In this document: one piece after another, positions 9,297-56,726 of the stretch | Position numbering within the stretch: position 1 is the first letter of the stretch | How the letters are laid out: each line of letters begins with the position of its first letter | Assembly (NCBI GenBank): GCA_041650315.1 | Contig: JBAZLJ010000002.1 | Span: forward strand, 65,599-129,598 | DNA from: Candidatus Woesearchaeota archaeon | GTDB lineage: Archaea > Nanobdellota > Nanobdellia > Woesearchaeales > JAGVYF01 | Direction: 5' to 3' | Length of the DNA: 64,000 nt | The notes under the pieces: generated by a model | Databases searched by the model: none | What the model was told of the DNA's origin: nothing | The model's input: only the letters and a program-made list of their open reading frames with translations | Position numbers and translations under genes: made by a program

Positions 9297-9827
9297 ATGG
9301 CGGATATACTGGATAACCTGAAGAAAGCTATGCAACCTGCGAATGCTAGCGCGAATAATGCTGTTCCTGAAACTCCTAAGGAAGAAGCGGCAAGCAAAGA
9401 ACAAATTTCTGAATTCATTGAAAAGCTGAACAATCTTACTCGTGCAATCAGAACAATTGAAGAAAGGTATAACAACCTCAGAAGAAAGTCTCAGTTGACA
9501 GACCATAATATACTTGTTCAGCATCAAAGGCTCAATAAGGAACTTAGGCTGAACGATTCTGATCTCATTGATATCAAGAGAGGATTGCAGAAGATAAACG
9601 ATAAACTGAATATGCTCGAGAAAGAGCTGGATGTCTGCGCGAAGAAGAATGAACTTGACGTACTTGCCAAATATATCGGATATTGGAGGCCGATGGAATT
9701 TGTCACGCGCGGAGAGGCTGAAAAGATAATAAACGCAGCAATTCTAGAGAAAGGGCCTAGAAAAGAAGAGCCTGAAAAGAAGCCTCTTGTAAATAGGTTG
9801 AATAACGGCGAAAGAAGCGTATACTAA
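9297..9827 (+). CDS. hypothetical coiled-coil protein
   Basis: ORF with heptad-like charged repeats; no motif recognised. Confidence 0.35.
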   Translation: MADILDNLKKAMQPANASANNAVPETPKEEAASKEQISEFIEKLNNLTRAIRTIEERYNNLRRKSQLTDHNILVQHQRLNKELRLNDSDLIDIKRGLQKINDKLNMLEKELDVCAKKNELDVLAKYIGYWRPMEFVTRGEAEKIINAAILEKGPRKEEPEKKPLVNRLNNGERSVY

Positions 9828-9842: not shown

Positions 9843-9963
9843 TTTTGCCGTTAGTTCGCATGCGCTTCTGATAGGTGATTGCTGGCCTTCCCTTGTAAAG
9901 GGTCCAACATCCCTTGCCGCATAAGTCCATTGAACTACATGATGCTCACAAAGGACGGCAAAA
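9843..9963. ncRNA. candidate structured ncRNA / repeat element, family A copy 1 (strand undetermined)
   Basis: Conserved core (gcgcttct..gtgattg.tggccttcccttgtaaagggtccaaca.cccttgcc ... acatgat..ctcac.aag) shared with 18392-18511 and 57424-57549. Closed by a 9-bp terminal stem ttttgccgt/acggcaaaa that differs from, but is paired like, the stems of the other copies. Confidence 0.4.
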
Positions 9964-10030: not shown

Positions 10031-10588
10031 ATGGATGAAAACCTAGTCGATCTCATTCTACAGATGAAAAATAGTAGCTATACTAACGACCAAATCATAC
10101 AGCAGCTACAGAATCAAGGCTATAATAGTCAAGACATATATGATGCTATGACTACCGCTGATATGAGAACTGGTCAGCCTATCATGGAAGAAGGACAGAT
10201 GTTCCAAGGCACTCAAAGTTATGATATCGCACAAGCGCCTGTAGAAAATCTTCAGATGTCATCTGTCCGTGATGAGATTGAAGCGACAGCTGAATCCATA
10301 ATCGAAGAGAAGTGGGCAGAATTCGAAGATTCTGTCAAACGTATACTTGACTGGAAAGCTGAAGTAGAAACTAAAATAGAAAGCTTCACTAAAGAATTAG
10401 ATGATCTTAAACTTGACATATCAAACCTGCAGAAGGGCATATTCGGTAAAATGAACGAATATGATAAAAGCATAATGAATGTCGGCACTGATATAAAATC
10501 AATGGAAAAAGTATTCAAAGAAATATTGCCTGCATTCACAGAGAATGTGCAAGAGTTAGGAAGATTAACCGGCAAAACGAAGAAATAG
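10031..10588 (+). CDS. hypothetical acidic coiled-coil protein
   Basis: ORF only. Confidence 0.35.
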   Translation: MDENLVDLILQMKNSSYTNDQIIQQLQNQGYNSQDIYDAMTTADMRTGQPIMEEGQMFQGTQSYDIAQAPVENLQMSSVRDEIEATAESIIEEKWAEFEDSVKRILDWKAEVETKIESFTKELDDLKLDISNLQKGIFGKMNEYDKSIMNVGTDIKSMEKVFKEILPAFTENVQELGRLTGKTKK

Positions 10589-12462: not shown

Positions 12463-12568
12463 ATAGCTATTTTATAGGATATATTATTTATAAACCTTTG
12501 GTTTTTGATTTCTGAGTATATTATAACCCATATCGTAAGTATACTACATAGTTAATGTAGAATTTAGT

Positions 12569-12672
12569 CTGCAACGGATAAATTTTCTACTTTCCTTTGC
12601 TATGATAGCCATTCCCGGGACTGGTTCCTTGGCTATTCTCTTCTTTTGCTACAAAATTTATAGTTGTTGCAG
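12569..12672. repeat. family B inverted-repeat-bounded element (MITE-like or structured RNA), copy 1
   Basis: About 85% identical to 56727-56831. Terminal inverted repeat ctgcaac...gttgcag, extended by taaatttt/aaaattta. Central hairpin atagcca-ttcccgggactggttcc-tggctat. Confidence 0.4.
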
Positions 12673-12721
12673 ACCAATATGGTACAAACATTTATAAATT
12701 AACTTCTACGAACTATATATT

Positions 12722-13343: not shown

Positions 13344-13444
13344 AGGGTCGTGGTCTAGTGGCTACGCGCTTCCGTTCAGGAACGCGCCACAGATGACGTC
13401 GGTCTCACTCACCGAAGATCAGGGGTTCGAATCCCCTCGACCCT
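13344..13444 (+). tRNA. tRNA, probably intron-containing, isotype undetermined (possibly Val, anticodon CAC)
   Basis: Perfect 7-bp acceptor stem AGGGTCG/CGACCCT. T-arm AGGGG-TTCGAAT-CCCCT. Canonical-looking anticodon hairpin TCGGT-CTCACTC-ACCGA followed by a 5-nt variable loop. About 25-30 extra nt forming the hairpin GCGCTTCC-GTTCA-GGAACGCGC suggest a non-canonically placed intron. Confidence 0.5.
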
Positions 13445-13548
13445 ATTTTCTTTTATTTCTTCGTATGACTTTGCGTAGCAAATGTCATACTTGCGTTGTT
13501 TGGTCAAGCTTTTGCGTAGCGAAGCGGAGTCAAAAGGTTGGTTCCTGC

Positions 13549-14078: not shown

Positions 14079-15169
14079 ATATTCTTCCACTTTGCTACGA
14101 AATCTTTCTTGAACATAGAATAAGTGTCTTCCTTGATCGCTTCTCTGATTTTTTCTATGAATCTCTGCATGAAATAGATATTGTGATAACTTTTGAAGCG
14201 TTTGCCTGCAGGCTCTTGTATCTTAGTAAGATGATGAATGTACGCTTTTGAATAGCTCTTGCAGACATGACAATCGCAGCCTTCAACCATTGGCGAATTG
14301 TCGTTCTTGTATCTGCCTTGCGAAATATTGAGTATACCATCGAATGTGAATATCATATCATGCCTTGCATTCTTTGTTGGATAGACTGAATCGAAACAAT
14401 CTACGCCTAGCTCTATGCAATCTAATATGTCAACCGGATTGCCTACGCCCATTACGTATCTAGGTTTCTCTTTTGTTATGTATGGAATAGCTGATTCCAA
14501 TCCTAGATGCATCTGCTGTTTTGTTTCTCCGATTGCAAGACCGCCGATTGCTATTCCGTCGAATTCTAACGAACTTATGTATTCTGCGCTCTTCTTTCTC
14601 AGATCGGGTTCGAAACCGCCTTGACAGATGCCGAACAACAATTGTTTCTTATCAGTGTGATATTCTACGCATTCTTTTGCCCAACGATGAGTCTTGTTGA
14701 TTGATTCTAGAAATTCTTCTCTTGTGGCTTTCGGACCGGACATAGAATCGAGCATCATAGCGACATCGCAACCGATGTCCATCTGAATGTTCATTATCCT
14801 TTCAGGTGTAATGACATGCTTCTTGCCGTTGAACGGCGAAAGGAAGTGCAAGCCTTTGCTTGAATTGGTGAGATACATACTCCTTGATGCCTGGAATCCT
14901 CCGCAATCTGTGAAGATGCAGCCATCATAATTGATGAACTTGTGGATTCCGCCTGCGTTCTTGATAGTTTCAACGCCCGGCGCCATGGATAGCACTAAAG
15001 AATTGCAGATTATGTTTCTTGCGCCAATCTCTTTGTAATCATCAGTTGAAATGCATTTGCCTGAGCCCATTGTGGCGACTGGCATGAAGAAGGGAGTCTC
15101 AAACTTTCCTGAACGCGTTTTCAGCTCGCCTAGTCTGGCTTCTCCTGATTGATGTTTAATCTTGAACAT
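14075..15169 (-). CDS. tgt: archaeosine/queuine-type tRNA-guanine transglycosylase catalytic domain (no PUA domain)
   Basis: TIM-barrel TGT pattern and zinc site CDCHVCKSY...H. 364 aa. Confidence 0.7.
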   Translation of the reverse strand: MFKIKHQSGEARLGELKTRSGKFETPFFMPVATMGSGKCISTDDYKEIGARNIICNSLVLSMAPGVETIKNAGGIHKFINYDGCIFTDCGGFQASRSMYLTNSSKGLHFLSPFNGKKHVITPERIMNIQMDIGCDVAMMLDSMSGPKATREEFLESINKTHRWAKECVEYHTDKKQLLFGICQGGFEPDLRKKSAEYISSLEFDGIAIGGLAIGETKQQMHLGLESAIPYITKEKPRYVMGVGNPVDILDCIELGVDCFDSVYPTKNARHDMIFTFDGILNISQGRYKNDNSPMVEGCDCHVCKSYSKAYIHHLTKIQEPAGKRFKSYHNIYFMQRFIEKIREAIKEDTYSMFKKDFVAKWKNI

Positions 15170-16797: not shown

Positions 16798-18321
16798 CTA
16801 TAGTTTAATTCCGCCGAAACTAAGATTGCTCTGCCCCTTTTTCTGCAAAATAGATTTGTCGAACAACGGAATCTTCACAGGAATTGCGAATTTCGAGAAG
16901 TTGGATGAGATGATGGCTTCGCCTTTATCTAAAGATGCAATCGTCCTGTTCGCCGCGCTCAAGTCCTGGCTTGCGCTGTCGATTATCGCCTGCCTCTCTG
17001 CAGCCATCTCTATGCCGAGGATTATCTTCGTGTTCATGTTCGCCAAAATCTGCCTTGGTATGAGCGAAGGAAGCTGAGTTATGGCTGTAAGACCAATGCG
17101 GAACTTACGTCCCTCTCTGGCGATTGTCGCGAATATGTTCGGGCCTTCTTCTAGAACTTCTTTACCAAGCACTCTCGGCGCTTCTTCTAGAACTATAGAA
17201 ATCACCGGCTTTTCACTTAACCTACCTTGCGACTTATATTTCTTATACCTGTTGAATATCTCTGAAGTGATGAGCGATCCAATCAATATCTCTACTGCGC
17301 CTGAGAATGAGGAAGTGTCTATCACCACTTTCTTCCCCGTCTCGAGCTCGCTGCAGATATCGCTGACTATCATCTCGCCAGCGTTCAGAGTAAATACACC
17401 ATTGCAGAATAATTGATTCTCAGCAAATTCCAGATCCAATACATTGAGCAATCTCCTCTTTATCACTGCCAATGTCGCCTCATAGAAATCCACTTCCAGA
17501 GGCTTGTCCAATATTATCGATTGAATCCAAGTATCGCCATATCTTTTGTAATATGAAGCCAATGCCTGTTTCTGCGCGTCTGAAAAAGTTATCGCGCCAT
17601 CGAAATGATGCGGTTTAAGAGTTCTTAGATTAATCTTCAATGTGCTGCATCCAACAGGCACTTCATTGTGAGTATAATATCTTACGTTCTCTTTCATCGG
17701 ATGGTCTTTCAGTCCGAACTTGGTCCTTCCGTAATATTCGTCATGCGGGTCGAGTACAAGGATTCCGCAGTAGTCCTTGTCGATTGTGTTCCATAATAGG
17801 TTCGACATCAAAACAGATTTGCCTCTGCCGGTCGTTCCTGCAATCATTATGTGATGACTGAACACTTGGTCGCCTGGAAGGTTTACGTCAACGTCAAGCA
17901 TCTTCGAGCCGGAACGGATCTTGCCGAAGCACATTGAATTATCCGGTTTCGATAGGAATGTGAGATCTTCTTTTGTGAGCTCTCTTGCTTCGGAGAAAAA
18001 TGCAGGCAATGTTTTGCACAAGACTGCGTTGTTGTTGCTGACTTGAAGAACTGGTTTGAGGATTGCTAATGTGTACGTTCTGAGTTCTGGATCCAATAAT
18101 TCTAGGTCTTCGTTTATGTCCTGCTCCAGTTTTATGCCGGACATCAGCTCGAGATTCTGCTGCGATATCTGGCTGCCGAACACTAAATCAATGACTTCGA
18201 GAATTATCTTCTGATTTGAATCTTCTGTGACAAGCAGTTCACCAATCTCGACCGGCTTGCCGGATTTCTGTCTCGCGACTATACGACCGAGCTCGCCTGA
18301 TATGATTAACGCTTTTGTCAT
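16798..18321 (-). CDS. herA: HerA-type hexameric DNA helicase/translocase
   Basis: Walker A GTTGRGKS and FtsK/HerA fold pattern. 507 aa. Lies immediately upstream of mre11. Confidence 0.7.
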
Positions 18322-18391: not shown

Positions 18392-18511
18392 TTAAGTTAG
18401 CATCAGGTTCGACTTGTACTTCTAATTGTATATAACTGACATTTCCCGTAGGGACAACCCCCTTGTCAGTTCTAAATATAGCATGATAAGTCTCACAAGT
18501 GATGCTAACTG
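18392..18511. ncRNA. family A structured element, copy 3 (divergent core)
   Basis: Same terminal stem as copy 2 (aagttagcatc/gatgctaact). Core has a shortened hairpin cccgtaggg and the conserved ccaac.cccttg and atgataa..ctcacaag blocks. Confidence 0.35.
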
Positions 18512-18554: not shown

Positions 18555-18875
18555 ATGCACGAGCTTTTCGCAGTACAGAAGCTGATAGAAGAGGCAAAGA
18601 AACAGGGCGAAGTAGTCGAAATCAGGTTAGAGCTTGGCGAACTTGCGCCTGTGGAAGACCATGATTTGCTTAAAGTTTTTAAAAACTTGACCGAATGGAA
18701 AGTCAAGATTGTGCCGTTGAAAGCGAAAGTCAAATGCGAGTGCGGTTATGAAGGCGAGCCGAAAATAGTAGATAGGACTCACGATTCTGTAGTATATGTC
18801 TGCCCGAAATGTGGAAAGAAGCCAAAGATAGAAGAGGGCGACGAGATAATACTTTCTGAAGTTGTTGTCAAATGA
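18555..18875 (+). CDS. hypA: hydrogenase nickel-insertion protein HypA
   Basis: MHELF... N-terminus and two CxxC pairs (CECG...CPKCG). 106 aa. Confidence 0.7.
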   Translation: MHELFAVQKLIEEAKKQGEVVEIRLELGELAPVEDHDLLKVFKNLTEWKVKIVPLKAKVKCECGYEGEPKIVDRTHDSVVYVCPKCGKKPKIEEGDEIILSEVVVK

Positions 18876-28305: not shown

Positions 28306-28569
28306 AAGCTCGTACAGGCTCTTGCTCATATGAACTTCTCATGATACCCCCAACATATCTAAAATTCATGGGGCAAGGCCTTTTTTCTTCTCTTTTTATT
28401 GATTTTTAATTGACTAGAATTAAGTTAAATGTGATTCGAAAAAAAAGCTTATTCTATGATTATCTTATGTTCAGTCTGAGAAACATCTATCTCACAGCTT
28501 TTTGACTTCGCAAAAACCTGGGAAAACACTGAGACATGCGTTCGCTTCGCTCACTTAGTCTCAACAGAA

Positions 28570-28845
28570 TTATTCTATAATAATCTTATGCTCGTTCTGA
28601 GAAACATCTATCTCTTTCAAATCATTGACTACAATATCAGAACCCCTTGGTAGATATTTAACATCGTGATTCTTGAAAACTACGCTCATTACATTATGGA
28701 ATTCCAATGTCTTTGTAGGAACTTCTACAGTCTTATGCGCGTCATTAATCTTGAAGAGCTTAACCTCTACCATATACGGATATTCATCGTTCTCTGGAGA
28801 TTCTTTTCTCCTGCATACGATAATGCTCTTCGCTTTGTATTTCAT
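28570..28845 (-). CDS. hypothetical protein; its last 13 codons are duplicated at 28455-28497
   Basis: ORF. The sequence downstream encodes a second ...IDVSQTEHKIIIE* fragment. Confidence 0.3.
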   Translation of the reverse strand: MKYKAKSIIVCRRKESPENDEYPYMVEVKLFKINDAHKTVEVPTKTLEFHNVMSVVFKNHDVKYLPRGSDIVVNDLKEIDVSQNEHKIIIE

Positions 28846-31391: not shown

Positions 31392-34300
31392 ATGTCCTAC
31401 GAAATCCCTGCGGAACTTGAATACAAAGAGATAATCATGTTCGGACTTACATTCATGCAGTTGCTCTACGCAATGGTTTTCCTAGTGCCTATTGCCATCA
31501 TCCTGAAATCCGGCATCGATTACACAATCCAGGCAGTCATCATCGCATTGCTCGTCGGAATCGCTCTCATGTTCATGTTCTTCAATCTCACAGAGAAGCT
31601 CAAGGAGATGTGGCAATACATGAAGCTGAAGACCAAGTACCAAAGATACCTAGAGACTGACCAGAAAGTCGCCGTCCTAAAGATAAAGCCGATTAATTTC
31701 ACGATAAAGACTGACGAGGAGAAGCAAGTCATCATCAAGACGTTCAGGAAATTCCTTAACTCGTTGAACTTTCCGATACAGATACTCATCAAGACAGAGC
31801 CGTTGCTATTGGACAATTATCTGAACCAACTGCATAAGAAATCCTTGAATAAGGAGCTGGTCGCTGGCATGAAGAAACATCTTAGCGAGACTCTGAGTGA
31901 TAAAGTCTTGAACAAGACGTTCTACATAATCATCCCAGAGAAAACCGGATTGGAGAAAAGGCAGTGCATCGAGAAGCTCAAAGACCTCAACCTCAAAGTC
32001 GATGAAGCCAAACTGCCTGCAGAGAAATATTACAAAATCGATATAACGTCGGCAGACTTCAAGATAAAGCAATACCATACGATAATAGCGGTCAGAGGCT
32101 ATCCGAGATTTGTCGAATCCGGATTCCTCGACAAAGTAGTAACTTCGCAGGGCTATTTCGATATAAGCATCCATATCGAGCCGGATTCGATTGAGCATAC
32201 CATGGTCACGCTCAATAAAGAGTTGCAGAAACAGAAAGCCGATCTCTATTCTGCCGAACTCAAAGGCGTAGTATCGCCATCTCTCGAAATCAAGTACAAA
32301 GACACAAAGAGCATCCTTGAGCAGTTGCATAAAGGCGAAGAAAAGCTGTTCAATGTTTCAGTCTATGTCGAATGCAGAGCATCGACCAGAGAAGAACTGA
32401 GAGACCTTGTGGCGAAAATCCAGTCCGAGCTTAATGCGTTAATGATGGATTCCAAGATTCCTACTTATCGGATGATTCAAGGCTTGAAATCAGTCTTGCC
32501 GTCAGGCATTGATGCGTTGAACATCAAGCGAAACATAACAAGCAACGCCCTTTCGGCATTCTTTCCTTTCACATCCCCATTCCTTGAAATAGATGATGAC
32601 GGCATCTGGCTCGGCTTGAATAAGAACAACATTCCGGTAATAAAAGATGTATTCAAGCAATTCAATCCCAATGGTTGTATCTTAGCATCATCCGGCTCAG
32701 GCAAATCATACACCGCTAAACTAATCATAAGCCGTTATATTTTGAACGGGACTAAAGTCATAGTCATAGACCCCCAATGCGAATATAAGCAACTCGTGAA
32801 GCATTTTAACGGGCAATGCGTTGAGATTAGCAGGACTTCTGAGACCGTGATTAATCCATTAGACCTAGTAGGACACGAATATCCAGACAAACGTCTGTCA
32901 TTGATGGGCTTGATTCCAGTCATGTTAGGCGAACTGACGGAATCGCAGAAATCATTGATGGACAAAGCCATAACCATGGCATACCAAAAGAAGGGCATCA
33001 GCATAGATGAAGCCACATGGAGCAATATGTGTCCCATGATGTCCGATGTGCTCGATGCCCTCAAAACAATGGAAAGAGGGGCAAATACCTTTGAGAAAGT
33101 CTCCATTAAGTCTCTGATGAACAGGGTAGAGATGTATGTCAATGGCGTATTCTGTTTCCTCAATAAGCAGACGAAGCTCGATTTCAACAACAATTTCGTA
33201 TGCTTCGATATATCCAAGATGCCTAAATTAGTGCAACCAGTGATGATGTATCTGATTCTGGACTATGTCTACATGAAGATGAAGGCGGACATAAACCGCA
33301 AACTGCTTGTCATCGATGAAGCATGGACGCTTCTAGGCAGAGCAGAGGATTCCAATTACATATTCGAGATAGTCAAGACTTGCAGGAAATTCAATATGGG
33401 GCTTCTCTTAATCAACCAAGAGGTTGAAGGATTATTGACCTCAAAAGCCGGAAAGTCTGTGCTTGCCAATACATCATACACATTCCTGATGAAACAGAAG
33501 CCTGCTGTCATCAAAGATATCCGAGACACGTTCAATCTCAGCCCTGCAGAAAAAGACTATCTCCTGACTGCTTCCATCGGCGAAGGGCTGTTGATAATCG
33601 GCGATGAGCATACTGAGCTTAAAGTGGTCGCATCTGCTGAAGAGCATAAGCTGATTACAACCAATGCGGATGAACTATTGAAGCTCGAAGCAAATGCTAT
33701 GAACCCTGCTTTCAGGAAGGACGTGGAGATCAAGCTGGACTTGTCCAGCGATGTCTACCGGAAAGCGGATTTGAGCGAGGATGATGTGAAGTATTTGGTT
33801 AGGAACGGATATGCTGAAGAGCAATGCAGAGCGATAGAGGCGAAAAGACAGGAAGCATATCTCGTGAAGAAAAAGAGATGCGAAAGTATGCCCCACGTTT
33901 TCTTAGTTTGGGAGATTGCGAATTATCTAAAAAAGTATACTTCTGAAATCAAAACTACATCAACATCTGTGGCAGATATTATTGTCCAAACGCCAAAGGG
34001 CGAATTCGCTATTGAGATTGAAACGGGCTATTTCTTGAAACACAACAAAGCAGAATTATTTGATAAAGTAAAGGCATTGAATGAAAAGTTCGGCTCAAAT
34101 TGGTGCTTTGTTGTGACTGACAATGATATAAGAAAACAATATAGGCGATTAGGGAGAACATATACACGGATGGATTTATCGAGATTAGTGCAAGAAATTC
34201 CCCTCTCACCCCCTCAAATTCTGGCGTTTAAAGCTTTATCCCCCTCAAACTCTGCGAATTCGCCCGCAGGACTTACCATTCATACAACCAACACGGAGGT

Positions 34301-34484
34301 ATCTAAAATGAACGACCAACAACCTAAGAACGATAAAAACGAACCGACTAAAGAATACAACGATCAACCGATTCTCGAAACGCGAATTAGCTTGAGCAAG
34401 GATGGGAAATATGTCATACACAAGACAATCATCACAGACATAAAACCGATTGCATATATGCAAAAAGTACTGGGCTCAGAATGA
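31392..34484 (+). CDS. VirB4/TrbE/CedB-like conjugation ATPase with N-terminal TM anchor and C-terminal extension
   Basis: Walker A ASSGSGKSYTAK and Walker B LLVIDEAWTLL. 1030 aa. Confidence 0.7.
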   Translation: MSYEIPAELEYKEIIMFGLTFMQLLYAMVFLVPIAIILKSGIDYTIQAVIIALLVGIALMFMFFNLTEKLKEMWQYMKLKTKYQRYLETDQKVAVLKIKPINFTIKTDEEKQVIIKTFRKFLNSLNFPIQILIKTEPLLLDNYLNQLHKKSLNKELVAGMKKHLSETLSDKVLNKTFYIIIPEKTGLEKRQCIEKLKDLNLKVDEAKLPAEKYYKIDITSADFKIKQYHTIIAVRGYPRFVESGFLDKVVTSQGYFDISIHIEPDSIEHTMVTLNKELQKQKADLYSAELKGVVSPSLEIKYKDTKSILEQLHKGEEKLFNVSVYVECRASTREELRDLVAKIQSELNALMMDSKIPTYRMIQGLKSVLPSGIDALNIKRNITSNALSAFFPFTSPFLEIDDDGIWLGLNKNNIPVIKDVFKQFNPNGCILASSGSGKSYTAKLIISRYILNGTKVIVIDPQCEYKQLVKHFNGQCVEISRTSETVINPLDLVGHEYPDKRLSLMGLIPVMLGELTESQKSLMDKAITMAYQKKGISIDEATWSNMCPMMSDVLDALKTMERGANTFEKVSIKSLMNRVEMYVNGVFCFLNKQTKLDFNNNFVCFDISKMPKLVQPVMMYLILDYVYMKMKADINRKLLVIDEAWTLLGRAEDSNYIFEIVKTCRKFNMGLLLINQEVEGLLTSKAGKSVLANTSYTFLMKQKPAVIKDIRDTFNLSPAEKDYLLTASIGEGLLIIGDEHTELKVVASAEEHKLITTNADELLKLEANAMNPAFRKDVEIKLDLSSDVYRKADLSEDDVKYLVRNGYAEEQCRAIEAKRQEAYLVKKKRCESMPHVFLVWEIANYLKKYTSEIKTTSTSVADIIVQTPKGEFAIEIETGYFLKHNKAELFDKVKALNEKFGSNWCFVVTDNDIRKQYRRLGRTYTRMDLSRLVQEIPLSPPQILAFKALSPSNSANSPAGLTIHTTNTEVSKMNDQQPKNDKNEPTKEYNDQPILETRISLSKDGKYVIHKTIITDIKPIAYMQKVLGSE

Positions 34485-34543
34485 GCCCACATTATTCTAT
34501 TTTAACATAAAGTATAAATACTCTGATTAAAATTAGGTTAACA

Positions 34544-35716
34544 TTGAAAAAAAGAATTCAAATTTCGGAAATAATGCCGATATTATCTAAAGCGATTAAT
34601 CAAAATAAATTAAGTCCTAATGTCCCTCATTATTATACCAGAATATTTACTTATTTTGATGAAATTGAAATTCCTGAAACATCATTTATGCAGACATTAA
34701 AATCCATATCATCCATCCTTAACGAAATAGATCAACACCACTTTAAAAGTCCAGAAGACTATTTTTTGTATATTATTAGTATTTGTGAACATATTACTTC
34801 AAAGATTTTTCAAAAAAGTATTAATCAAAAGGAGATATATGAAAAATATTCCACTCAATTTAATCAAATCGTAGATTTAATTAAAGAAATATATTCAAAA
34901 TTTGAAGATTCTTTTGCACAATCTCGAACAAATGAATATAATTCTTTCAAGGGGAATAATACTTCTTCCAAAATTGAATTAGAATTTGATTTAACTAGTG
35001 AACTGGACATTAAAAAAGCAATAATCAAAGAATTTGTTCTCCCCTACAAATATGAGATTAAAAAAGATAAAGTAATTAATAGGGGATATGTCCCGATAAT
35101 TTATCAAGGAAAAATAATTTATCAAAGTGAATCCAAATCATTTAGAGGGCACATAATTGAAAATGAAATCACCCCTATGGGATATCCCTTTTATGGAATA
35201 GACATAATTCATCCTAAAAATGAAAATGAGTTTATAGAATTTGTCAATGAATTAATTGCCATATTTAAACATAATATTGAACAGAGAAAGGGATATAAAC
35301 TATTATGGAATGGAACAAAAAGTAAGCCTGAAGAAGAAGTACAAATCTTTTTTGATAATCAAATTATAGAATTAGCCCAAAGAAGAGGCATTGAAGTCTC
35401 TCGAGAAAATGAAACGGGGCGCGGTCCAGTTGATTTTAAGTTTATTGAATCAGTAGAACATAAAGCACATCTTGAAATCAAAAAGGCGTCTAATCCTAAA
35501 TTAATAAAAGGGTTATCTAAACAATTAGTTACTTATTTAAAAGCGGATAAATTAGATATAGGTTTTTATCTAATAATTCAATTTTTTGACAATGAGGATA
35601 AAATTATCAATACGTTTAAACAACAAATTTCAAAATTAAGATTAGATAATAATATAAAGATATTTACTATATTTATTGATGCAAGAAGAAATAAAAAATC
35701 TGCATCAAAATTGTAA
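34544..35716 (+). CDS. hypothetical protein with candidate C-terminal PD-(D/E)xK nuclease motif
   Basis: Very AT-rich. ...ENETGRGPVDFKFIESVEHKAHLEIKKAS gives a D...ExK arrangement. Confidence 0.4.
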   Translation: MKKRIQISEIMPILSKAINQNKLSPNVPHYYTRIFTYFDEIEIPETSFMQTLKSISSILNEIDQHHFKSPEDYFLYIISICEHITSKIFQKSINQKEIYEKYSTQFNQIVDLIKEIYSKFEDSFAQSRTNEYNSFKGNNTSSKIELEFDLTSELDIKKAIIKEFVLPYKYEIKKDKVINRGYVPIIYQGKIIYQSESKSFRGHIIENEITPMGYPFYGIDIIHPKNENEFIEFVNELIAIFKHNIEQRKGYKLLWNGTKSKPEEEVQIFFDNQIIELAQRRGIEVSRENETGRGPVDFKFIESVEHKAHLEIKKASNPKLIKGLSKQLVTYLKADKLDIGFYLIIQFFDNEDKIINTFKQQISKLRLDNNIKIFTIFIDARRNKKSASKL

Positions 35717-35717
35717 A

Positions 35718-36707
35718 ATGGCTGAAAAAATAGTTAATCCCGAAACCAAAGAAATAATTATCAAGTGCAGTAGTGATTTAGAATTAAATAGCTATTCTAA
35801 TTTTTACGATGCATTTGGAGATTTAACTATTACTGAAATAGTTAATAATTTTAATATAGTTAGATATAGTTTATTTGAAAGATATTATTTGTCCGATAAA
35901 AGCTTTAAAGAAACAATTAAAGTGATGAAACAAAATATCCTAAAGCTTCAATCGCAATGGGATACTTTTACACCATTAAAACCTAGAATAATTGATATCG
36001 AAGATTTTAATGCGGGATTTAAATTTACTATTATTAAAAATATTAAAAAGAAAATTAAGGATAAATTAGATAATCTAGAGATATCAAGAAAAGGTACGGA
36101 TTTTGCATGTGTTGTTTATATCTATAAAAAAGAAAATAATAAAGTGGGGATTTTATTTTCGAATTATAATTATAGTAATTCTAAATTACTTGATTATCTC
36201 TCTAAAGAATTGGTTGAAAGGCTTATTTTCGAAAATCTTAGGCCTGAGAAATATAAATTAATTGAATTGGTAGATCGTTTAAATAAAGTAATTGGAATTA
36301 AATTTGACCCTGGGTACTTAGTCCCAAAAAAGATTAAAGATAAATTACAAGAACAAGATAAAATTAGATTAATCTCTAATTCTATAAAATTAGAGAAACA
36401 AGAAATTAGATTATTAGATTTAAAATCATTTGAAGAGTTTAATATTCTTATCTCTGATATTAAGAATAAAAAACGTGATATAGAGCAATTAGAGGGGTAT
36501 TTAGATTTAATTCGAATTAAAATTGAATCTTTGGATAAAGGCACTAAAACAGTAATTACGGTTTGGTCAAATAAATTAAATGTTGAAAGTAAAGGGGAAT
36601 TTGTTTATTTAATGGGTTTTTTAAAACAATTATTTTTAAAACAGAAATCAAATCATAAAAAAGAGATTATACAAAAAACAATTAAATCTAGTCTTATCGC
36701 TCATTAA
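35718..36707 (+). CDS. hypothetical Lys/Asn-rich protein, apparently co-operonic with the preceding gene
   Basis: ORF. Start placed at the ATG two nt after the upstream stop. Confidence 0.35.
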   Translation: MAEKIVNPETKEIIIKCSSDLELNSYSNFYDAFGDLTITEIVNNFNIVRYSLFERYYLSDKSFKETIKVMKQNILKLQSQWDTFTPLKPRIIDIEDFNAGFKFTIIKNIKKKIKDKLDNLEISRKGTDFACVVYIYKKENNKVGILFSNYNYSNSKLLDYLSKELVERLIFENLRPEKYKLIELVDRLNKVIGIKFDPGYLVPKKIKDKLQEQDKIRLISNSIKLEKQEIRLLDLKSFEEFNILISDIKNKKRDIEQLEGYLDLIRIKIESLDKGTKTVITVWSNKLNVESKGEFVYLMGFLKQLFLKQKSNHKKEIIQKTIKSSLIAH

Positions 36708-36932
36708 ATCAAGTTTTATAGTTTAAATTCATATTCCCCCATCTTTTTCTCTCTCTGCACCTTTTCCAAGCATATTTTCTCTTTTCGGCACGTTCTGAAG
36801 TTCATTGTGTTTTCCCTTCCGCATATCTTCACAAGGCATACGATTTGTGGCAAAAGGTCGCTTCTCGGCTAAAACATCATGACTTCCTCTCTGCAAGGCA
36901 CCTCTAGAAAAAATGCATGGAGGTGCATTAAA

Positions 36933-37034
36933 ATGATAGAAAAAGACCATTTTTGCGAATATGAAATAGCTGGAGAACTGATTCTCTGCGGAATATGCGG
37001 TGCAGAGCACCACATTAAGGGTGATGTCCAATGA
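36933..37034 (+). CDS. 33-aa zinc-finger-like peptide (C..C....C..C..HH), translationally coupled to ardA
   Basis: ggaggt ribosome-binding site. Its stop overlaps the ardA ATG (ATGA). Confidence 0.3.
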   Translation: MIEKDHFCEYEIAGELILCGICGAEHHIKGDVQ

Positions 37035-37534
37035 GGATTGCCATCACCGATTTGAAAGATTACAATGAAGCCATTCTCAGATTCGAATGGCTTAATCTCG
37101 AAAACTGCTCAACTGCAGATGAAATCGGATGTTTCATCAACAGATTCCTTGCAAAACGGAGCAGGGAAACCGGTGAACTCCATGAAGAATGGTTCGTAAC
37201 AGATTACGAAGAATTCGTTGATCTCGGTGAGTATCCTTCTATCGAAGAACTTGCCGAAGCAGCCAAACTTAGCAAACTGCATGGCTGGGAAGCGGTTTCA
37301 GCATATTACGGCTATAACCGCTCCTTTGACGGTTTTGATGATGCTTATTCTGGCATATATGAAAGCGAAGAGGATTTCGCCTATGATATAGCTCACGAAT
37401 GCTATAGCGAGAAAGAACTAGGCAAACTTGAGCTGTATATCGATTGGGGGAAGTACGCTAGAGATTTGTTTATTGGCGATTACTTTAGCGAAAAACTTGA
37501 ATCATTCAAAATTGCAGTATTTAGACGAATTTAG
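37031..37534 (+). CDS. ardA: ArdA-family anti-restriction protein
   Basis: 167-aa acidic protein. N-terminal IAITDLKDYNEAILRFEWL, central EWFVTDYEEFVDLGEYPSIEEL and C-terminal YIDWGKYARDLFIGDYF align to the ArdA proteins of conjugative transposons. Confidence 0.7.
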   Translation: MRIAITDLKDYNEAILRFEWLNLENCSTADEIGCFINRFLAKRSRETGELHEEWFVTDYEEFVDLGEYPSIEELAEAAKLSKLHGWEAVSAYYGYNRSFDGFDDAYSGIYESEEDFAYDIAHECYSEKELGKLELYIDWGKYARDLFIGDYFSEKLESFKIAVFRRI

Positions 37535-38007
37535 GGCAATGAATATCCTGCATCAAAATAAGCTTGCATATCTGCAGGAACTCTTTGTTTGATTCTTTTT
37601 GAATCTTGTAATTTACCAATTTTAAATCCGTATTCTATTAAATTCCACCAATATTTATTAGAATTAATTCTAGAAACGGGTCCCCAAGCAGTTGAATCTT
37701 CAGTTAGATCTTTCAAATATTCTGGAACTTTATCTGATTTTTTAAATGTGATTCGTAATTCAGGTCCGAATTTATCTACCGAATCTAATTTTCTATAATC
37801 ATCACTAGAAGCTACATCTTCGCCAGATTTAGATTTATATTTAACTTCAAAGGCATCTTCTGATTTTTGAGGTACTTCTGCCCATAATTGAGTTTTTCTT
37901 TTAGAATTTGCTAAATAACCTACTGATTCAAAAAAAGCCTCATCTTTTTTCTTCCAACCTACTGGTTTTTTTAAACTACCATCCGGATTAAATTCATATA
38001 AACCCAT
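37531..38007 (-). CDS. hypothetical protein, last gene of the methyltransferase/helicase operon
   Basis: ORF; no motif recognised. Confidence 0.35.
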   Translation of the reverse strand: MGLYEFNPDGSLKKPVGWKKKDEAFFESVGYLANSKRKTQLWAEVPQKSEDAFEVKYKSKSGEDVASSDDYRKLDSVDKFGPELRITFKKSDKVPEYLKDLTEDSTAWGPVSRINSNKYWWNLIEYGFKIGKLQDSKRIKQRVPADMQAYFDAGYSLP

Positions 38008-38015
38008 TATTTCAC

Positions 38016-38678
38016 CTATTTAGATAAATATTTAATAAATTCTTCAACTGAATGAACTTCATCATCATCAAAATCAAATGATACCATCTTCTCAATACCG
38101 CCCCTTATTTCGTATTCTTCAGCAATGTAAGTTTTTTTAAGATCTATTTTAATAAAATAAGTTTCTTTTTCTTTATCACAAGTATGGGCTACCCATATAT
38201 CCATTTCAGGATGTTTTTTCATATACTCTATTTTATCCGGTCTTAACCATAATTCCTTACCACAACCGATTTTGCCAGTAACTTCTAAATAAAGAGTCTT
38301 TTTGCCGAATTTCATAATTACATCTGGTCCACCTTTCTCGATTGGATGTTTAAGTATAATTTTAGTGGAATCTGTGCCAAATCCAATATCTTCAAAAGTA
38401 ACACCTTTAATTTTATCTTGAATTAGTGAAAATACTTGTTTTTTTCTTTCTTGTTCTTTTTCCCAAGAATCTTTATATTTTAATTTCCAAACATAATCAA
38501 TAACATCCGAAAGTTTTTTAGTATCTATAACTGAACCCATTTCTAGTTTAATTCCGCTCAAGCGTTCAATATCAGGGGTCCGAGTGATATATGTTGCCTT
38601 AAAGAATTTCCCATCTACATAGATACTAATTCTATCTTTATTGCCCGTCTGAATTCTTATATCAGTTATTTTGCTCAT
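38016..38678 (-). CDS. hypothetical protein (weak PD-ExK-like pattern GPDVIM...LYLEVTGK)
   Basis: ORF overlapping the methyltransferase stop by 17 nt. Confidence 0.35.
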   Translation of the reverse strand: MSKITDIRIQTGNKDRISIYVDGKFFKATYITRTPDIERLSGIKLEMGSVIDTKKLSDVIDYVWKLKYKDSWEKEQERKKQVFSLIQDKIKGVTFEDIGFGTDSTKIILKHPIEKGGPDVIMKFGKKTLYLEVTGKIGCGKELWLRPDKIEYMKKHPEMDIWVAHTCDKEKETYFIKIDLKKTYIAEEYEIRGGIEKMVSFDFDDDEVHSVEEFIKYLSK

Positions 38679-41610
38679 TATTCCAATTTTCTATAAGATT
38701 GATATCATTAGATTCTAGATTATATAATTTGTAAATCTGTGAATTTAATTTATTTTCGAGAACTAATTTTTCTGTAGATTCTTTAGATTTTATAGCCAAT
38801 ATTTCATCTACCAACTTGGAGAATTTCTTTTGATCATTCAAATCAAGTGCAGGGATAGGTATTTTCATTAAATAGATTCCATCTAAATGAATTGTAAGAT
38901 TTGCTGAATTTAATATATATCTATAAAAGAAATAACTAACTACTCTCGAATTTAATATTGCTAAGATATACCTAGGGTCAAATTTTAATTCATCAAAGGA
39001 AACAATCACGCACCCACCCGAAGGCACATTTTTATCAGTATTGATTATAACACCCCTTGGATAAAGAGTTCCAAATTGAGTTATAACTACTAATTGTTTA
39101 TGCTCTAAGTAAGGGTTAGTATTGGTCTTATCTTTTGCAGAATATGCATCATAATCAAGATAAAATCGTTTTATATTCTTACCTCCTAAATAATAATATT
39201 TACCATTAGGTGTAATTTCCTTATCTAAATCAATGCCTCTATCACCATCAAGAATATTTGCTTTAAATTTGCTTATCTTTGAATAAATATCATCATAATA
39301 AAGAATCCAATACCCTTTTTCAACAGCCTCATTTATCGGCAAGAAACAGGTTTTATCTTCTCTCATAGAGTAGCATTTTATTTGATAATTATTTTTAATG
39401 CATTTCTGATAAAATATGATTATCATTTCTAAAGTAACGCCTTGGAATTGACCATATGCATCAGTAATTTCACGCAAAACTGAATTAGATTGGATGAAAT
39501 TTCGGATATAGTAATATCCCTCAGACCTAGAGATTGAATGCGGTACAATCATTGAAAATTGCCCATTTTTAGCTAATAAAAAATAAGTTCTTTCTAGAAA
39601 CATGGTCGCTAGATTGAATTGATTCTTAAATCTAGATTTGGTATTATGTGTTATAGATAAAATCTTGTATATCTCCTTATATTTCTCATTTAAATCATAA
39701 CAGACATAAGGGGGATTTCCAATAACTACATCAAATCCACCATTCAGTATAATATGCCCAAAATCGATTCTCCAATGGAATACTTGAAGCTCTGAAAATT
39801 CTTTATCAGATATTGGGGGATTCTTTCGAATAGCTTTATACTTTGCAGTTTGTTCCTTATGCGCTTTGCCATAATCAATGCCCGCTAATTTAAAATTAAT
39901 ATATTCTAAAAATGAGGGGGTTACTGCATGATAAATCGATTTTCTAATTGTCTCGATAATACTCCTTAGGTTTTCTGCTTTCAAACCATGTGTTTTTCTA
40001 TAAATTTTATACAAAATATAATATGCCTCAATATAATCATTTAATTTATAGGTTTTCAACAATTCTCTTGCTTTTTTAAGATCAGTACCTTCGCTATTTT
40101 CAGAAAAAGCGATTAAACCAGTGAATATCCCATCAACCTTCTCGGTAAGTGGCGTATTCATTGGCATTTGAACTAATTTCTCATCGAGCCAACCTACCAA
40201 ACTATTTCCCACTTTAAGATTATATTCAATATTCGGCAATGCTTTTATTTCATGTTTATTATCTTCATAATCTGAGATTAACCATAGCCAGAGTCTTAAT
40301 TTAGAAATTTCAATTGCACCAGCTAAAAAATCAACGCCATATATATTTTCAGTGATTATATCTAATTTTAATTCATAGAAATTTTTCTTTTCTTTTAATT
40401 CATATAATAGTCTTCTTTTAAGTCCCAATAATACTTCAGATGCTTTAATTAAAAATGCCCCTGAGCCACAGGCGGGATCTATTACTTTGATTTCATCAAG
40501 TATTTTTAGAGCATCTTTCATATCTTTTTTATTTTTGGATTCTATTAATTCCTCAAAAGAATGGAATTTGCCTAGCTTATCAAATAGACATGGAAGTATA
40601 GTATTATTAGAGATATAATCAGTAATAGATTCAGGCGTATAATATACCCCCTTTTTCTTTCTTTCAGTTATCTTTTTGACCGCATTTTCAGCTTCTTTTT
40701 CAAAACCTTCACTTTCCCATTCAACAACGCTTCTTTCATAGACATGACCTAATATTTCTGGAGTTAATATTTTTTCTTCATTCTCCTCTATAGCTTTAAC
40801 ATCTTCAATTATCCAATGGTAACTATTCAAAAATTCAAATATTTCTCCCCATTGTTCAGAATCTAATTTTATATCCAAATCTTGTTCTAACACATCAGGT
40901 CTGAATAAACCACCATTCAAATAAGGCACAACTATCTGATAATCGCCTATTTCAAGTAGGTTCTTCTCTTGAGAATTAAATAGATGGAACAATTTTTTAA
41001 GATTCTGTAAAAAGTTACCCTTTTTTAATAATATCTTAGTAAATAAACTTTCACCAGAAATTTTACCCCCATCATTAAATTTTATAATTCCCTTGTGGCA
41101 TAAGAAATATATAAAGAAAAACCTATCAAATATTTTCTGAGCAATTAGATATTTATGTATTGGTTCAACATCATTTTTTATATTTTGAACAAGAAGATTT
41201 CTTTTAAGCTTAAAAGCTTCATAAAATAATCCCGAGATATCTTTTGATTGGAATAAATAGTCTAAATTAGTGATATTCTTTAGTTTATCTACTTTTGAAG
41301 GATTATTTTTTGTTCGTTCAGAATAAATGAAATGTTTTGTTTCGCCAAAGCTTCTAAAAAATATTAGTTTAGTATCTATGCAGATTATACAATAACTTAA
41401 ACCTCTATCCATTAAGAAATGATCTTTGATCTCTTTAATCTTTTCTTCATCGTATACTTCATATATGACTAAAAGCTTTCGCTTATCTATTCTAAAGAAG
41501 ATTCCTTCTTTGTATTCTTCATCAGAATATTCTTTTTCTTCATTAAACCCTTTTTCTTTTAAGAATTCTATTAATCTTTTCTTTCCACCCAATATCTCTT
41601 GAACTTCCAT
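38662..41610 (-). CDS. gamma-class N6-adenine DNA methyltransferase with N-terminal domain and C-terminal target-recognition domain (Eco57I/PglX/LlaGI-methyltransferase-like)
   Basis: Motif I VIDPACGSGAFL and motif IV GNPPY. 982 aa. Confidence 0.75.
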   Translation of the reverse strand: MEVQEILGGKKRLIEFLKEKGFNEEKEYSDEEYKEGIFFRIDKRKLLVIYEVYDEEKIKEIKDHFLMDRGLSYCIICIDTKLIFFRSFGETKHFIYSERTKNNPSKVDKLKNITNLDYLFQSKDISGLFYEAFKLKRNLLVQNIKNDVEPIHKYLIAQKIFDRFFFIYFLCHKGIIKFNDGGKISGESLFTKILLKKGNFLQNLKKLFHLFNSQEKNLLEIGDYQIVVPYLNGGLFRPDVLEQDLDIKLDSEQWGEIFEFLNSYHWIIEDVKAIEENEEKILTPEILGHVYERSVVEWESEGFEKEAENAVKKITERKKKGVYYTPESITDYISNNTILPCLFDKLGKFHSFEELIESKNKKDMKDALKILDEIKVIDPACGSGAFLIKASEVLLGLKRRLLYELKEKKNFYELKLDIITENIYGVDFLAGAIEISKLRLWLWLISDYEDNKHEIKALPNIEYNLKVGNSLVGWLDEKLVQMPMNTPLTEKVDGIFTGLIAFSENSEGTDLKKARELLKTYKLNDYIEAYYILYKIYRKTHGLKAENLRSIIETIRKSIYHAVTPSFLEYINFKLAGIDYGKAHKEQTAKYKAIRKNPPISDKEFSELQVFHWRIDFGHIILNGGFDVVIGNPPYVCYDLNEKYKEIYKILSITHNTKSRFKNQFNLATMFLERTYFLLAKNGQFSMIVPHSISRSEGYYYIRNFIQSNSVLREITDAYGQFQGVTLEMIIIFYQKCIKNNYQIKCYSMREDKTCFLPINEAVEKGYWILYYDDIYSKISKFKANILDGDRGIDLDKEITPNGKYYYLGGKNIKRFYLDYDAYSAKDKTNTNPYLEHKQLVVITQFGTLYPRGVIINTDKNVPSGGCVIVSFDELKFDPRYILAILNSRVVSYFFYRYILNSANLTIHLDGIYLMKIPIPALDLNDQKKFSKLVDEILAIKSKESTEKLVLENKLNSQIYKLYNLESNDINLIENWNNEQNN

Positions 41611-44600
41611 TTATTTCTCAATAAAGCTAATTGCAAATAATGATTCTTTGTTAGTATTTAACTTTTGCTGAACCCCTAATTTTGTGAAACTATCTTTAAG
41701 TTCATTAATCCATTGTTTAACTTTAGTATTGGTTATTTCTTCTTTTAATTCAACTTTTATTTTTTTAACCACTTTTTCAGTTGTACTCCCGCAATTATGT
41801 CTAGTCAATTCAAGAGTATCTTCTAATTTTGAAATTTCAGAATACAATTCAACAAGTTTTTCAGAAGTAATATAATCTAAAATATTATTTATTAATTTAT
41901 CAACATTATCATTGAAATAATGCATCCTTAGATGTTCTTTTCTTTTATTACTTAAATACTCTTCAAATGAATTAAGTTCGTGTTTAAAAATTCCTTCGAA
42001 ATCAATTCTTCTACTTAGTTCATCAGGATTTTGATTAGACAAAATTTCCTCGTTATATGAATCAGTATTCTTATAGACAATACTTAATCCCTTTTTACCT
42101 TCGAAACTAGTATAATTCTTACCTGAGGGGATATTGACTTTAGTTAGATCTTCCTTCTTAAGATTATACTTTTTAATTGCTTTTTGCAAAAATATTAAGA
42201 TGGGTTTTGAATAATCTAAAGCAATTTCTAAATCTTTAAAATTGCCTTCTCTTAAATTACCCCTTATTTTTTGAAGTACTTCTATGTACATCCTTTTGTC
42301 TTTAGCTCTTCTTTCCGATAAAAGCTCTTTTTCTGCTTCAAACCATATCCTATATTCAACTCCTACAAATCGAATTATATCCTTAATCCTTAATTCCATT
42401 GTTTCAACTAGTTTTAGTTCAATATCTAAATCATCATCCGGTCTAAAATTCAGAATCTCAATTTCTTTTGGAGCATCAAGTCTTGTTGCTCTACCTATTC
42501 TCTGTATTATTCTTACGGGATTATAGGGGATATCAAAATTTATTACTAAATCCGCACCGCTTATATTGAATCCTTCGGAGAGTGTATCTGTAGTTATTAA
42601 TATTCGAAGTTTATCTTTAGATTCATTAAATTTCTCGATGATTGTTTGTTTATTTTCAGTATTAGAATCAACAAATCTTATCTCATCGGGATGAATTGAA
42701 TTTTTAAAGTATTCTTTAATCGCTTTCAATGTATCTTTATATTCGGTAAATATCAGTATCTTTTTACTTTTATTAGAATTGAATACTTGACTTAATTGAT
42801 TTATTTTTTGGTCATTTTTGAATAATACTCCTGATTTTTCCTTTAAGAAGGGCTCTAATTTTTTTATTTGTTCATTTATCTTAGCTACATCAATTTTTAA
42901 TTCATTGAGTATTTTTAGATTACCAGATCCTTTACCTTCTTTGATTTTATCGATTACCTCTGAAAGCTTGTTTTTATAATCTAAATCAAAGTTGATATCT
43001 ATATCATTAAAATCCGAACCAAAATTAACATCAATCTCATCTTCATATTCTTCTTCCTCTAGATATTTAGTGTTTTGTTTCTCAATGGCAGTTAATATCA
43101 TAGTGCTTTTCTTGGATAATCTCTTAAGAGTAAGGTAGTAAGAACTGATATCACTTTCAAATCTTTTATATAATATCCATTTGAAAAACCCGCCTAAACG
43201 GACACCTTTTTCAGGGTCTAATATTCTTAAATGGGCGGCAGATAAGCTTGTGATAAAGTCTACAATCCCATTCACAATGTCTTTGTATCGTAAATCTAGC
43301 TCATATTTTATTTCTTCAATCTCGGGATCCTTTATTTTAGTAATATCAACATTTGAAAATGTCTTTAATTCGTCTATATAATCGGAAGAAGTTTTGATTG
43401 TCTCCCTCGTTGATTTGACAAACATCTCTCGTTCAATTTCTTCCTGTACCTTAGACAGATTCTCTTTTTCAGAATCAGTTAATTCTTCATATTCTTTATT
43501 TTTGAATAAGTTAATCAAATCACCAAGTTCTCTAACCAAAGTATCAAAGAGCAAGTTTTGCCCATGCCTATAGAATAATTTAACCAAATCCAAAAGATTA
43601 TCTAAGCTGGTATTAATTGGTGTTGCAGTTAAGAATAATATCTTAGAATTACCATTTTCATCGATTATCTTCTTTAGATTTCTAGTTCTATAAGCATCAG
43701 GATTCCTATAGTTATGAGCTTCATCGATTATAATTAACCCATAATTCTTTGCATATTTCTCAATTTTAAACATCTCGGGTCTTTTTTGCAAATCCCCCAT
43801 AGAAACCAGATTAACCTTATCATAAATCTCAAATTCTTTCAAATATCTAGGCCATTGGTCTTCATTATGGGCTAAACCCGCTGGAACTAGAATCATTACT
43901 TTTTTATCATTATTCAAGAAATATTTGGCTATTTGAGATGCAACATATGATTTCCCTAATCCTACTGATGAAGTTAAGAAACAACCCCTATACCCCTTAC
44001 TATTAAAATTATTTAACACCCTAATGAAATCTACATATTGGAATCGAAGTAATTTTGATTTTTTAAATTCCTCAAATAAATAATCAGCGTTTAGATACTT
44101 AATCAAAATCTTCAAAAATTCTTTCGGTTCAATATACATGAATGTATTTTCTAATTCTTCTTTAAACTTTGAATTTTCAATTGCCTCTACAATTGCATCA
44201 GCAACCTTCAGTTTTTCAAAATCTTCTGTTCCTTTCTTCCAAAGACTTTCAAACCATAATTCAACATCTTCTAAATCCTTAGGTTCAGTAATAATGGTGT
44301 TCAGCTCAGTATTTCCGATTAACCCACTAGGAGTCAAATTAGAAGAACCAATTACTCCCGCATTATACTTTTGAGATAAATTCGATGTGGAAATATCCTT
44401 TAAAAAAAGATATGCTTTACTATGCAATCTTTCAGGATTTTTTTCATCACCAAAATAAACCCTTACTTTAAGTGTCTTATATTCTTTGATTAATTGATAA
44501 AATAATTTTATCGCAGGTTTAGTTTGTTCATTTATTTGAAGTTCATTAAATTTCTCTTTGAAAGCTTTGATCAGCATATCTTTAGTAGGCTTTGTAGTTT

Positions 44601-44808: not shown

Positions 44809-44885
44809 TTTTAGTCATCAAAATATTATTTATGGTTTACTCTTATATAGCCTCAAAGATTTTTTGAATATATAAACCTTTATTT

Positions 44886-49653: not shown

Positions 49654-49766
49654 TTAAAATCCCTTTCTATGTTTAAGTTAAGCGTCTATTTCTAAAATAT
49701 ATAGCAGAAATTGCCCTAATATCAATTGATTACTCTTCGGATTGGATATTAGATAGTGTTTGTTAT

Positions 49767-51354: not shown

Positions 51355-51471
51355 ATATGAAACGTGGATAATCGTCTTTAAAAAAGCTTGTTTTTTACAT
51401 TCATGCACCCCCATAAAGCCCCCCACAAAGCCCCGTCCTATGTTTAAGTCAAGCGTCTATTTCTATAATTC

Positions 51472-56679: not shown

Positions 56680-56726
56680 AGAGGAAATCTAAAGAAACTT
56701 CTTATATAAACTTTACTATTGAGCAT

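Follow-up and report, generated by a model that had tools for sequence, protein, structure and literature searches.

A dispersed family of covarying hairpin elements between the genes of a Woesearchaeota genome

Genes and intergenic repeats of the locus

The window analysed here, the whole 64-kb stretch of Candidatus Woesearchaeota DNA, carries about 60 genes, among them those for HerA and HypA, a permease gene and a CBS gene. A low-GC island at about 31400-46000 (GC 0.27-0.35) encodes a VirB4/TraG-like ATPase (31392-34484), an Eco57I/MmeI-type methylase (38662-41610) and a PLD-helicase (41611-44808). The island was probably acquired and may belong to an element integrated at tRNA-Thr (53369-53441, minus strand). 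A tyrosine recombinase gene (51981-53228, minus strand) adjoins this tRNA gene, and a 32-nt direct repeat (53284-53315 and 53353-53384) overlaps the 3' end of the tRNA and looks like the att site of an integrated element. A free-standing LAGLIDADG-domain protein is encoded just past the tRNA (53580-54191, minus strand). Another tRNA, identified by Rfam at 13344-13445 on the plus strand and absent from the ARAGORN output, has a 32-nt insertion in the D-loop region that is probably a non-canonical archaeal intron.

Other repeats are also present. For example, a 43-nt direct repeat (49656-49698 and 51427-51469, about 86-89% identical) lies on the 3' side of two minus-strand genes and is unrelated to the hairpin family described below, and the copies of a 45-nt direct repeat (28449-28493 and 28570-28614) are 89% identical and 121 nt apart. 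In one of the related loci used for comparison (L004), an rve-family IS at 14168-15078 with 27-nt terminal inverted repeats (CTAAACCGCATTAATGTTAC...) is missing from the near-identical L005, and a 158-nt partial copy of one end of this IS lies at 883-1037.

The intergenic regions of the window contain three homologous elements of about 120 nt (family A; copies c1, c2 and c3), all on the plus strand (Table 1). A preliminary description had placed three such copies at these positions, and a profile HMM built from them (nhmmer) matches only c1, c2 and c3 in the window, with E-values of 5e-40, 1e-38 and 2e-30. The three copies are real, but the family is larger than the three that were originally proposed, as it includes two distant members in the window (B1 and B2, family B) and more in two related loci (L002 and L074). 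The B1/B2 pair was first seen by repeat finding, as 12570-12671 and 56727-56830. Covariance models and a search of related genomes had been suggested as a check, and the models were built from family A (R1) and from B1 and B2 (R2). The fourth match of R1 in the window is B2 (56724-56833), which is weak (14.3 bits, E 0.43), and R2 in turn matches c2 on the plus strand; these reciprocal matches indicate that families A and B are homologous, with c2 between them. Across about 170 kb of relatives' loci the model searches found X1 (L002) and X2 (L074) as the only members, which brings the known sequences to seven members and one ortholog of c1 (c1b, strain L049).

With both models, five of five copies in the window lie on the plus strand, whichever way the adjacent genes run. 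At five in 64 kb their density is about 78 per Mb, and the 9 kb to the left of the window contain no further copy. The low-GC island is free of the hairpin repeats. Weak matches of the models R2 and R3 at 43825-43939 on the minus strand (17.7 and 18.8 bits, E about 0.1), within the helicase gene of that island, were taken as chance and could be a decayed copy.

Searches of wider collections returned little. The pattern CCCTTGYCN{11,20}RCATGATRN{0,3}CTCACNA, which has about 20 fixed bases and is too strict for diverged members, gave only chance matches over genome and metagenome contig collections except for the c1 ortholog in L049. Pattern scans of viral contigs and blastn against plasmids and phages yielded no match, and a six-frame peptide profile of the element, by which spurious ORFs over other copies were sought, had no matches among 5.8 billion predicted proteins.

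Table 1. Positions, strands and settings of the hairpin elements and of the structural parts of c1 (window coordinates unless a related locus is named).
Feature	Position	Strand	Setting, partner or structure	Score
Copy 1 (c1), family A, 121 nt	9843-9963	+	flanked by the stop codon of ORF 9297-9827 and the TATA box of ORF 10031-10588	152.5 bits with R1
Copy 2 (c2), intermediate of families A and B	18394-18511	+	between divergent promoters of HerA (16798-18321, -) and HypA (18555-18875, +)	50.9 bits with R1; 37.9 bits, E 8e-7 with the family B model
Copy 3 (c3), family A	57425-57549	+	upstream of the CBS gene, 62 nt from its start; 1 nt from the permease stop codon (gene 57551-58585, -)	141.3 bits with R1
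B1, family B	12567-12675	+	P1 GTCTGCAAC / GTTGCAGAC; P2 ATAAATTTT / AAAATTTAT; P3 ATAGCCA / TGGCTAT; apical loop TTCCCGGGACTGGTTCCT	
B2, family B	56725-56832	+	P1 ATTGCAAC / GTTGCAAT; P2 GTAAATTTT / AAAATTTAC; P3 ATAGCCA / TGGCTAT; abuts the CBS gene stop codon	
c1 P1, 5' arm TTTTGCCGTT	9843-9852	+	partner 9954-9963 GACGGCAAAA; innermost pair U.G in the window, C-G in strain L049	
c1 P1, 3' arm	9954-9963	+		
c1 P2, 5' strand GT-TC-GCAT	9854-9861	+	partner 9942-9949 ATGC-TC-AC; conserved 2x2 UC/UC mismatch	
c1 P2, 3' strand	9942-9949	+		
c1 P3, 5' strand TGC(T)GGC	9880-9886	+	partner 9916-9921 GCCGCA	
c1 P3, 3' strand	9916-9921	+		
c1 apical hairpin CCCTT-GTA-AAGGG	9890-9902	+	equivalents CCC-GTA-GGG (c2) and CCGC-GTA-GCGG (X1 of L002)	
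X1	L002: 16318-16428	-		43.9 bits, E 3e-8 with R2; 22.9 bits with R1
X2	L074: 13135-13230	+		25.4 bits, E 1e-3 with R1

A rod-shaped fold with covarying helices

Each element is an imperfect palindrome of 96-123 nt that forms a rod when single-stranded, and a hand alignment of c1, c1b, c3 and c2 resolves three helices (P1, P2 and P3) besides an apical hairpin. The common fold runs from P1 through a small asymmetric internal loop to P2, then through larger loops to P3 and an apical UCCC/GUA hairpin. P1 is the terminal helix of 8-11 bp, its last pair is C-G, and the internal loop that follows has 1-2 nt facing 4-5 A-rich nt. The conserved unpaired motifs are AG after P1, a UC/UC mismatch, UCCC and the GUA triloop.

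As originally noted, the closing helices differ in sequence and are complementary in each copy. The terminal arms are TTTTGCCGT and ACGGCAAAA in copy 1, AGTTAGCATCA and TGATGCTAACT in copy 2, and AAGTTAGCAT and ATGCTAACTT, followed by a C.A mismatch, in copy 3. P1 of family A has 9-11 bp, and in five of nine pairs both partners are changed between c1 and c2/c3. The terminal sequence varies likewise among the copies as a whole, as is seen from TTTTGCCGT, AGTTAGCATC, AATTAGCGTC, GTCTGCAAC and ATTGCAAC.

The conservation of pairing rather than of sequence is confirmed and extends to three helices with many compensatory changes, since P2 and P3 covary too. The GTTCG and CTCAC motifs are the two strands of P2, with the conserved UC/UC mismatch between them, and compensatory changes turn GCAT/ATGC in c1 into GGAT/ATCC in c3 and GACTT/AAGTC in c2. 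Similarly, P3 is TGC(T)GGC / GCCGCA in c1, TGT(T)GGC / GCCACA in c3 and ACTGACA / TGTCAGT in c2, with four pairs changed on both sides. An alternative helix, TTGTTGG / CCAACAA, was rejected as it competes with the covarying P3, is missing in c2 and has a C.A mismatch in c1.

Some details of the preliminary description require amendment. The core motifs that it listed are present in the copies, but CATGAT stands about 3 nt apart in c1 and c3, and thus not at homologous positions in their gapless alignment. The shortened hairpin CCCGTAGGG, which had been assigned to copy 3, belongs to copy 2 (18392-18511). The apical loops of B1 and B2 begin with TTCCC. X1 retains a P1 (GTTAGCATC) and a P3 (GACTGAC) of the c2 type, differs in P2 (ACAAAAGAT / ATCTTTTGT) and keeps the GUA triloop on an altered stem, CCGC / GCGG. 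X2 retains P1 (AATTAGCGTC / GACGCTAATT) and a P2 of the family A type, and its apical domain has been swapped for another hairpin.

The counts of covarying pairs come from few related sequences, and one of the two alignments, that of B1, B2, X1 and c2 (n = 4), was fitted to the model; within these limits family A has 11 pairs with compensatory double changes and one mismatch (C.A in c3), and the model-based alignment has standard pairs in 97% of its cells, with 17 of 25 pairs changed on both sides and none of the 25 on one side only. None of 500 shuffles of this alignment reached any of the measures, and when the partners were slid by 1-3 columns only 26-45% of cells were paired, with at most three pairs changed on both sides.

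In the assigned helices of eight sequences, which were defined without the conserved UC/UC loop, there are 207 Watson-Crick pairs, one G.T on the plus strand and one on the minus strand (2 of 209); the tRNA-Phe of the window, by contrast, has a G.U in its acceptor stem. The near-absence of wobble pairs implies a constraint that acts on both strands alike. Such a constraint looks symmetric, as would be expected of a DNA palindrome or of something that folds in either orientation, and not of an RNA under selection on one strand. Folding energies make no consistent choice of strand either, as family A folds better on the minus strand and family B on the plus strand.

These results bear on the main rival explanation, in which the elements are paralogous genes for rod-shaped small RNAs of about 110-125 nt with their own promoters, gained in particular lineages, whose variable loops might be guides or protein-binding sites. 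The strong covariation of three helices, the short unpaired motifs that are kept, the single orientation of the five window copies and the TATA-like AT-rich boxes that can be read 20-30 nt upstream of several copies would all suit RNA genes. However, a G.U share of 2 in 209 is unusual for an RNA selected on one strand, the strand preferred by folding energy is inconsistent between families A and B, the apical domain of X2 has been replaced outright, and neither a promoter nor an oligo-T terminator is conserved at a fixed position.

Comparison with known RNA families points the same way, and the earlier statement that the elements match no nameable ncRNA class stands. At gathering thresholds Rfam 15 recognises three tRNAs only in the whole window, and relaxing the threshold to E 10 yields only chance matches around c1 and c3, for example to mir-204 and Fibro-purF. 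A C/D box sRNA has a C box (RUGAUGA) near its 5' end, a D box (CUGA) near its 3' end and a K-turn closed by the terminal stem. CUGA occurs in c1 only (CTTCTGAT, against CTTCTTAT in c3 and CTTCTAAT in c2) and lies 5' of ATGATG, and the C/D-box reading therefore fails; with the order inverted and the boxes unconserved, the doubt first voiced about this architecture was well placed. Candidate readings as 5S rRNA, a tRNA-like T-loop (GGTTCGA in c2), H/ACA RNA, a K-turn or a Shine-Dalgarno sequence plus small ORF were set aside as the motif was misplaced or unconserved across copies, and a reading as an origin recognition box was ruled out by spacing.

Presence and absence at intergenic sites

The relatives available for comparison were loci with a HerA about 75% identical to that of the window (L002, L004/L005, L073 and L074) and relatives of the CBS gene (L069-L072). 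Four of the five window sites (c1, c2, B1 and B2) are empty in relatives, in that the flanks can be aligned or the spacers are too short for an element, although whether each site reflects gain or loss is a matter of parsimony among relatives at only about 75% protein identity. At the c2 site the divergent HerA/HypA spacer can be aligned on both sides, including its promoter-like AT boxes, and a clean block of about 125 nt is missing in L002, L004 and L005; the c1 site shows the same pattern and is empty in L002 and L004. At the B1 site the spacer measures 259 nt in the window and 116 nt in L002, and the spacer of L072 that corresponds to the B2 site measures 23 nt. At the c3 site the models detect no family member in the syntenic loci L069 and L072, where the gene content of the relatives differs.

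The reverse comparison gives the same picture. The X1 site lies upstream of the L002 T2SSE gene, and the corresponding window spacer has 84 nt and no element. The X2 site is a convergent spacer that is filled in L074 and has 57 nt in L002, and X2 is inverted with respect to the gene backbone that the loci share. X1 has also affected annotation, as the public gene call for the L002 T2SSE ATPase gives 795 aa compared to 762 aa in the window, starting inside X1 with an extension of 33 codons (L002 16350-16448); by homology, the start is a TTG located about 24 nt past X1.

At closer range, strain L049, whose identity to the window is about 95.6%, has c1 at this site too. Of the three substitutions in its copy, one turns the innermost P1 pair from U.G into C-G. 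The ortholog is 97.5% identical to c1 compared to 95.6% in the surroundings, and its sole stem change improves the pair. This conservation is as compatible with a selected function, whether of an RNA or of another kind, as with a selfish element. It can be counted in favour of small RNA genes, but positions that differ between related genomes count against them, and taken with the scarcity of G.U pairs and the Rfam result this makes RNA genes a possible but doubtful explanation.

The positions of the elements raise a second RNA explanation, that they are cis-acting hairpins of untranslated regions (terminators, stabilisers or attenuators) which arose by local duplication. c1, c3 and B2 are found 0-16 nt from a stop codon, and X1 is in the probable 5' leader of the L002 T2SSE gene. 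The scarcity of G.U would follow from the ability of a palindrome to fold on transcription of either strand. However, c2 and B1 are between divergent promoters and outside both transcription units, the elements have no relation to gene function or direction, and the same genes in relatives are without them. As such, this explanation is very unlikely.

Mobility and known hairpin systems

The first description offered two options, structured RNAs or structured mobile DNA. The empty sites and the scarcity of G.U favour mobile DNA and weaken the case for an RNA gene. It had been reasoned that transposon-like insertion polymorphism with target-site duplications in homologues would indicate a MITE rather than an RNA; the insertion polymorphism is found, but the duplications of a MITE are not seen.

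A classical MITE, a deletion derivative of an IS with a DDE transposase that is cut and pasted as double-stranded DNA by a transposase binding its terminal inverted repeats, would have the size of these elements (96-123 nt) and terminal inverted repeats of 8-12 bp. The elements are likewise small, non-coding, intergenic, multicopy and polymorphic in their insertion. A MITE census placed a Woesearchaeal genome among the most MITE-dense archaea, with 105 per Mb (PMC11602168), so the general phenomenon is not new. Prokaryotic MITEs further share with the elements their dispersal between genes, several subfamilies per genome and differences in presence or absence between relatives. Unlike MITEs, however, the elements have no conserved terminal repeat, since c1 and c3 differ at five of nine terminal pairs while their interiors align without internal gaps and are about 85% identical. 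The covariation of the internal helices P2 and P3 would be left unexplained by a transposase that binds the ends. No consistent target-site duplication surrounds the eight copies, and TAA is found on both sides of three of the four GTTAGC-type copies at variable spacing. No autonomous element or IS with matching ends was found in the window or in about 300 kb of related loci, and the sole IS seen (in L004) has unrelated terminal repeats. Overall, a classical MITE is an unlikely explanation.

Recognition of a folded single strand is known from integrons, and the elements might be attC-like sites of an archaeal integron or CALIN (an attC cluster without integrase), recombined as folded single strands by an integron integrase. 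The hairpin of an attC site carries at its base the core sites R'' (RYYYAAC) and R' (GTTRRRY). The ends of family B are ...CAAC and GTTG..., placed and oriented like the R boxes, and B2 and c3 lie in direct orientation on either side of a single gene. The likeness of the architecture extends to size, two helices with an unpaired spacer, a variable apex and structure kept over sequence, although the resemblance is one of architecture alone. Bacterial and archaeal attC sites are imperfect palindromes of 57-141 nt that are recognised as folded strands, have two basal helices and an unpaired spacer with a variable apex, and are more alike within a genome (PMC9668308). Against this, AAC/GTT is found in family B only, with ATC/GAT, GTC/GAC or GTT/GAC in family A, X1 and X2. 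There is no cassette array either, as the copies are 0.6 to 39 kb apart with core genes between them that keep their order in relatives; the CBS gene, which separates B2 from c3, is for instance a syntenic core gene in L069 and L072. The sole tyrosine recombinase of the window scores far below the cut-offs (XerA/IntI: 113.9 vs 220 and 39.9 vs 265 bits), and no integron integrase, transposase or HUH enzyme was found among the approximately 30 of about 60 window genes that were scanned. The attC explanation is thus largely refuted and is the least credible of those considered.

The analysis shows the homology of the elements, their fold with its support from covariation, their precise intergenic presence and absence between related genomes and the lack of an Rfam match. 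On balance, these findings are probably best explained by a small, non-coding and non-autonomous mobile element of a lineage within the Woesearchaeota (DPANN archaea) that is recognised as a folded single strand. The element would be copied into further intergenic positions by an enzyme whose gene lies elsewhere in the genome. Rather than a fixed sequence at the ends, this enzyme would recognise the folded hairpin, in all likelihood in single-stranded DNA. Recognition of a hairpin would explain why the stems freely change sequence and yet remain strictly Watson-Crick on both strands. Compensation by Watson-Crick pairs only in three helices, a P1-loop-P2 module kept beneath a swappable apex, and the absence of duplication are left unexplained by a transposase binding terminal repeats and fit recognition of a folded single strand. 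Selection may then have spared only those insertions that separate a stop codon from the promoter following it, or one divergent promoter from the other.

The intermediate of a mobile hairpin of this kind would most likely be single-stranded DNA but may instead be RNA. More speculatively, the rods could be substrates of a structure-specific DNA mobilisation system new for DPANN archaea, a counterpart of REP/RAYT or attC/IntI or a new enzyme, which would recognise and copy the C-G-closed basal helix and the A-rich asymmetric loop independently of sequence; we advance this only tentatively.

DPANN archaea have very small genomes that are usually thought to be repeat-poor, and a dispersed hairpin family at the density found here would show that selfish DNA persists in them. 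If the mobilising enzyme reads structure and not sequence, it would add a new archaeal case to single-strand, structure-specific recombination, a class that is useful as a source of tools. There are practical consequences as well, as hairpin elements can mislead annotation, as in the L002 gene call that reaches 33 codons into X1, and could pass for novel ncRNA genes in covariation screens.

The elements do not show the defining features of REP/RAYT systems or of attC sites and show those of IS200/IS605-derived elements at most in part, and their relation to each is one of partial likeness. From attC sites they differ in the lack of AAC/GTT outside family B, of cassette arrays and of an integron integrase, and in that the genes flanked are core and syntenic. 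REP/RAYT systems have been described in bacteria. REPs and BIMEs (handled by RAYT, an HUH Y1 enzyme) and IS200/IS605-derived PATEs are likewise intergenic hairpin repeats that involve single-stranded DNA, have no target-site duplication, keep their stems by compensation and are biased in strand or orientation. REPs, however, have 20-40 nt and a conserved GTAG, compared to 96-123 nt and no GTAG head in the elements described here. PATEs are recognised by subterminal hairpins on the left and right without terminal repeats or duplication, by insertion 3' of a fixed tetranucleotide and by a TnpA in the genome. The elements resemble them in lacking a duplication, and four of seven left flanks end in TTT(A/G/T), but no TnpA or TnpB was seen in the scanned ORFs, neither a RAYT nor a TnpA gene is known from this genome, and where a PATE has a separate hairpin at each end, the ends of the present elements are paired to one another along the whole rod. 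Although ERIC and Correia-type elements are unrelated in sequence and restricted to Proteobacteria, and Correia elements have conserved terminal repeats and a TA duplication, they too are imperfect palindromes of about 100-150 nt that are intergenic or untranslated, polymorphic between species and foldable as RNA in either orientation.
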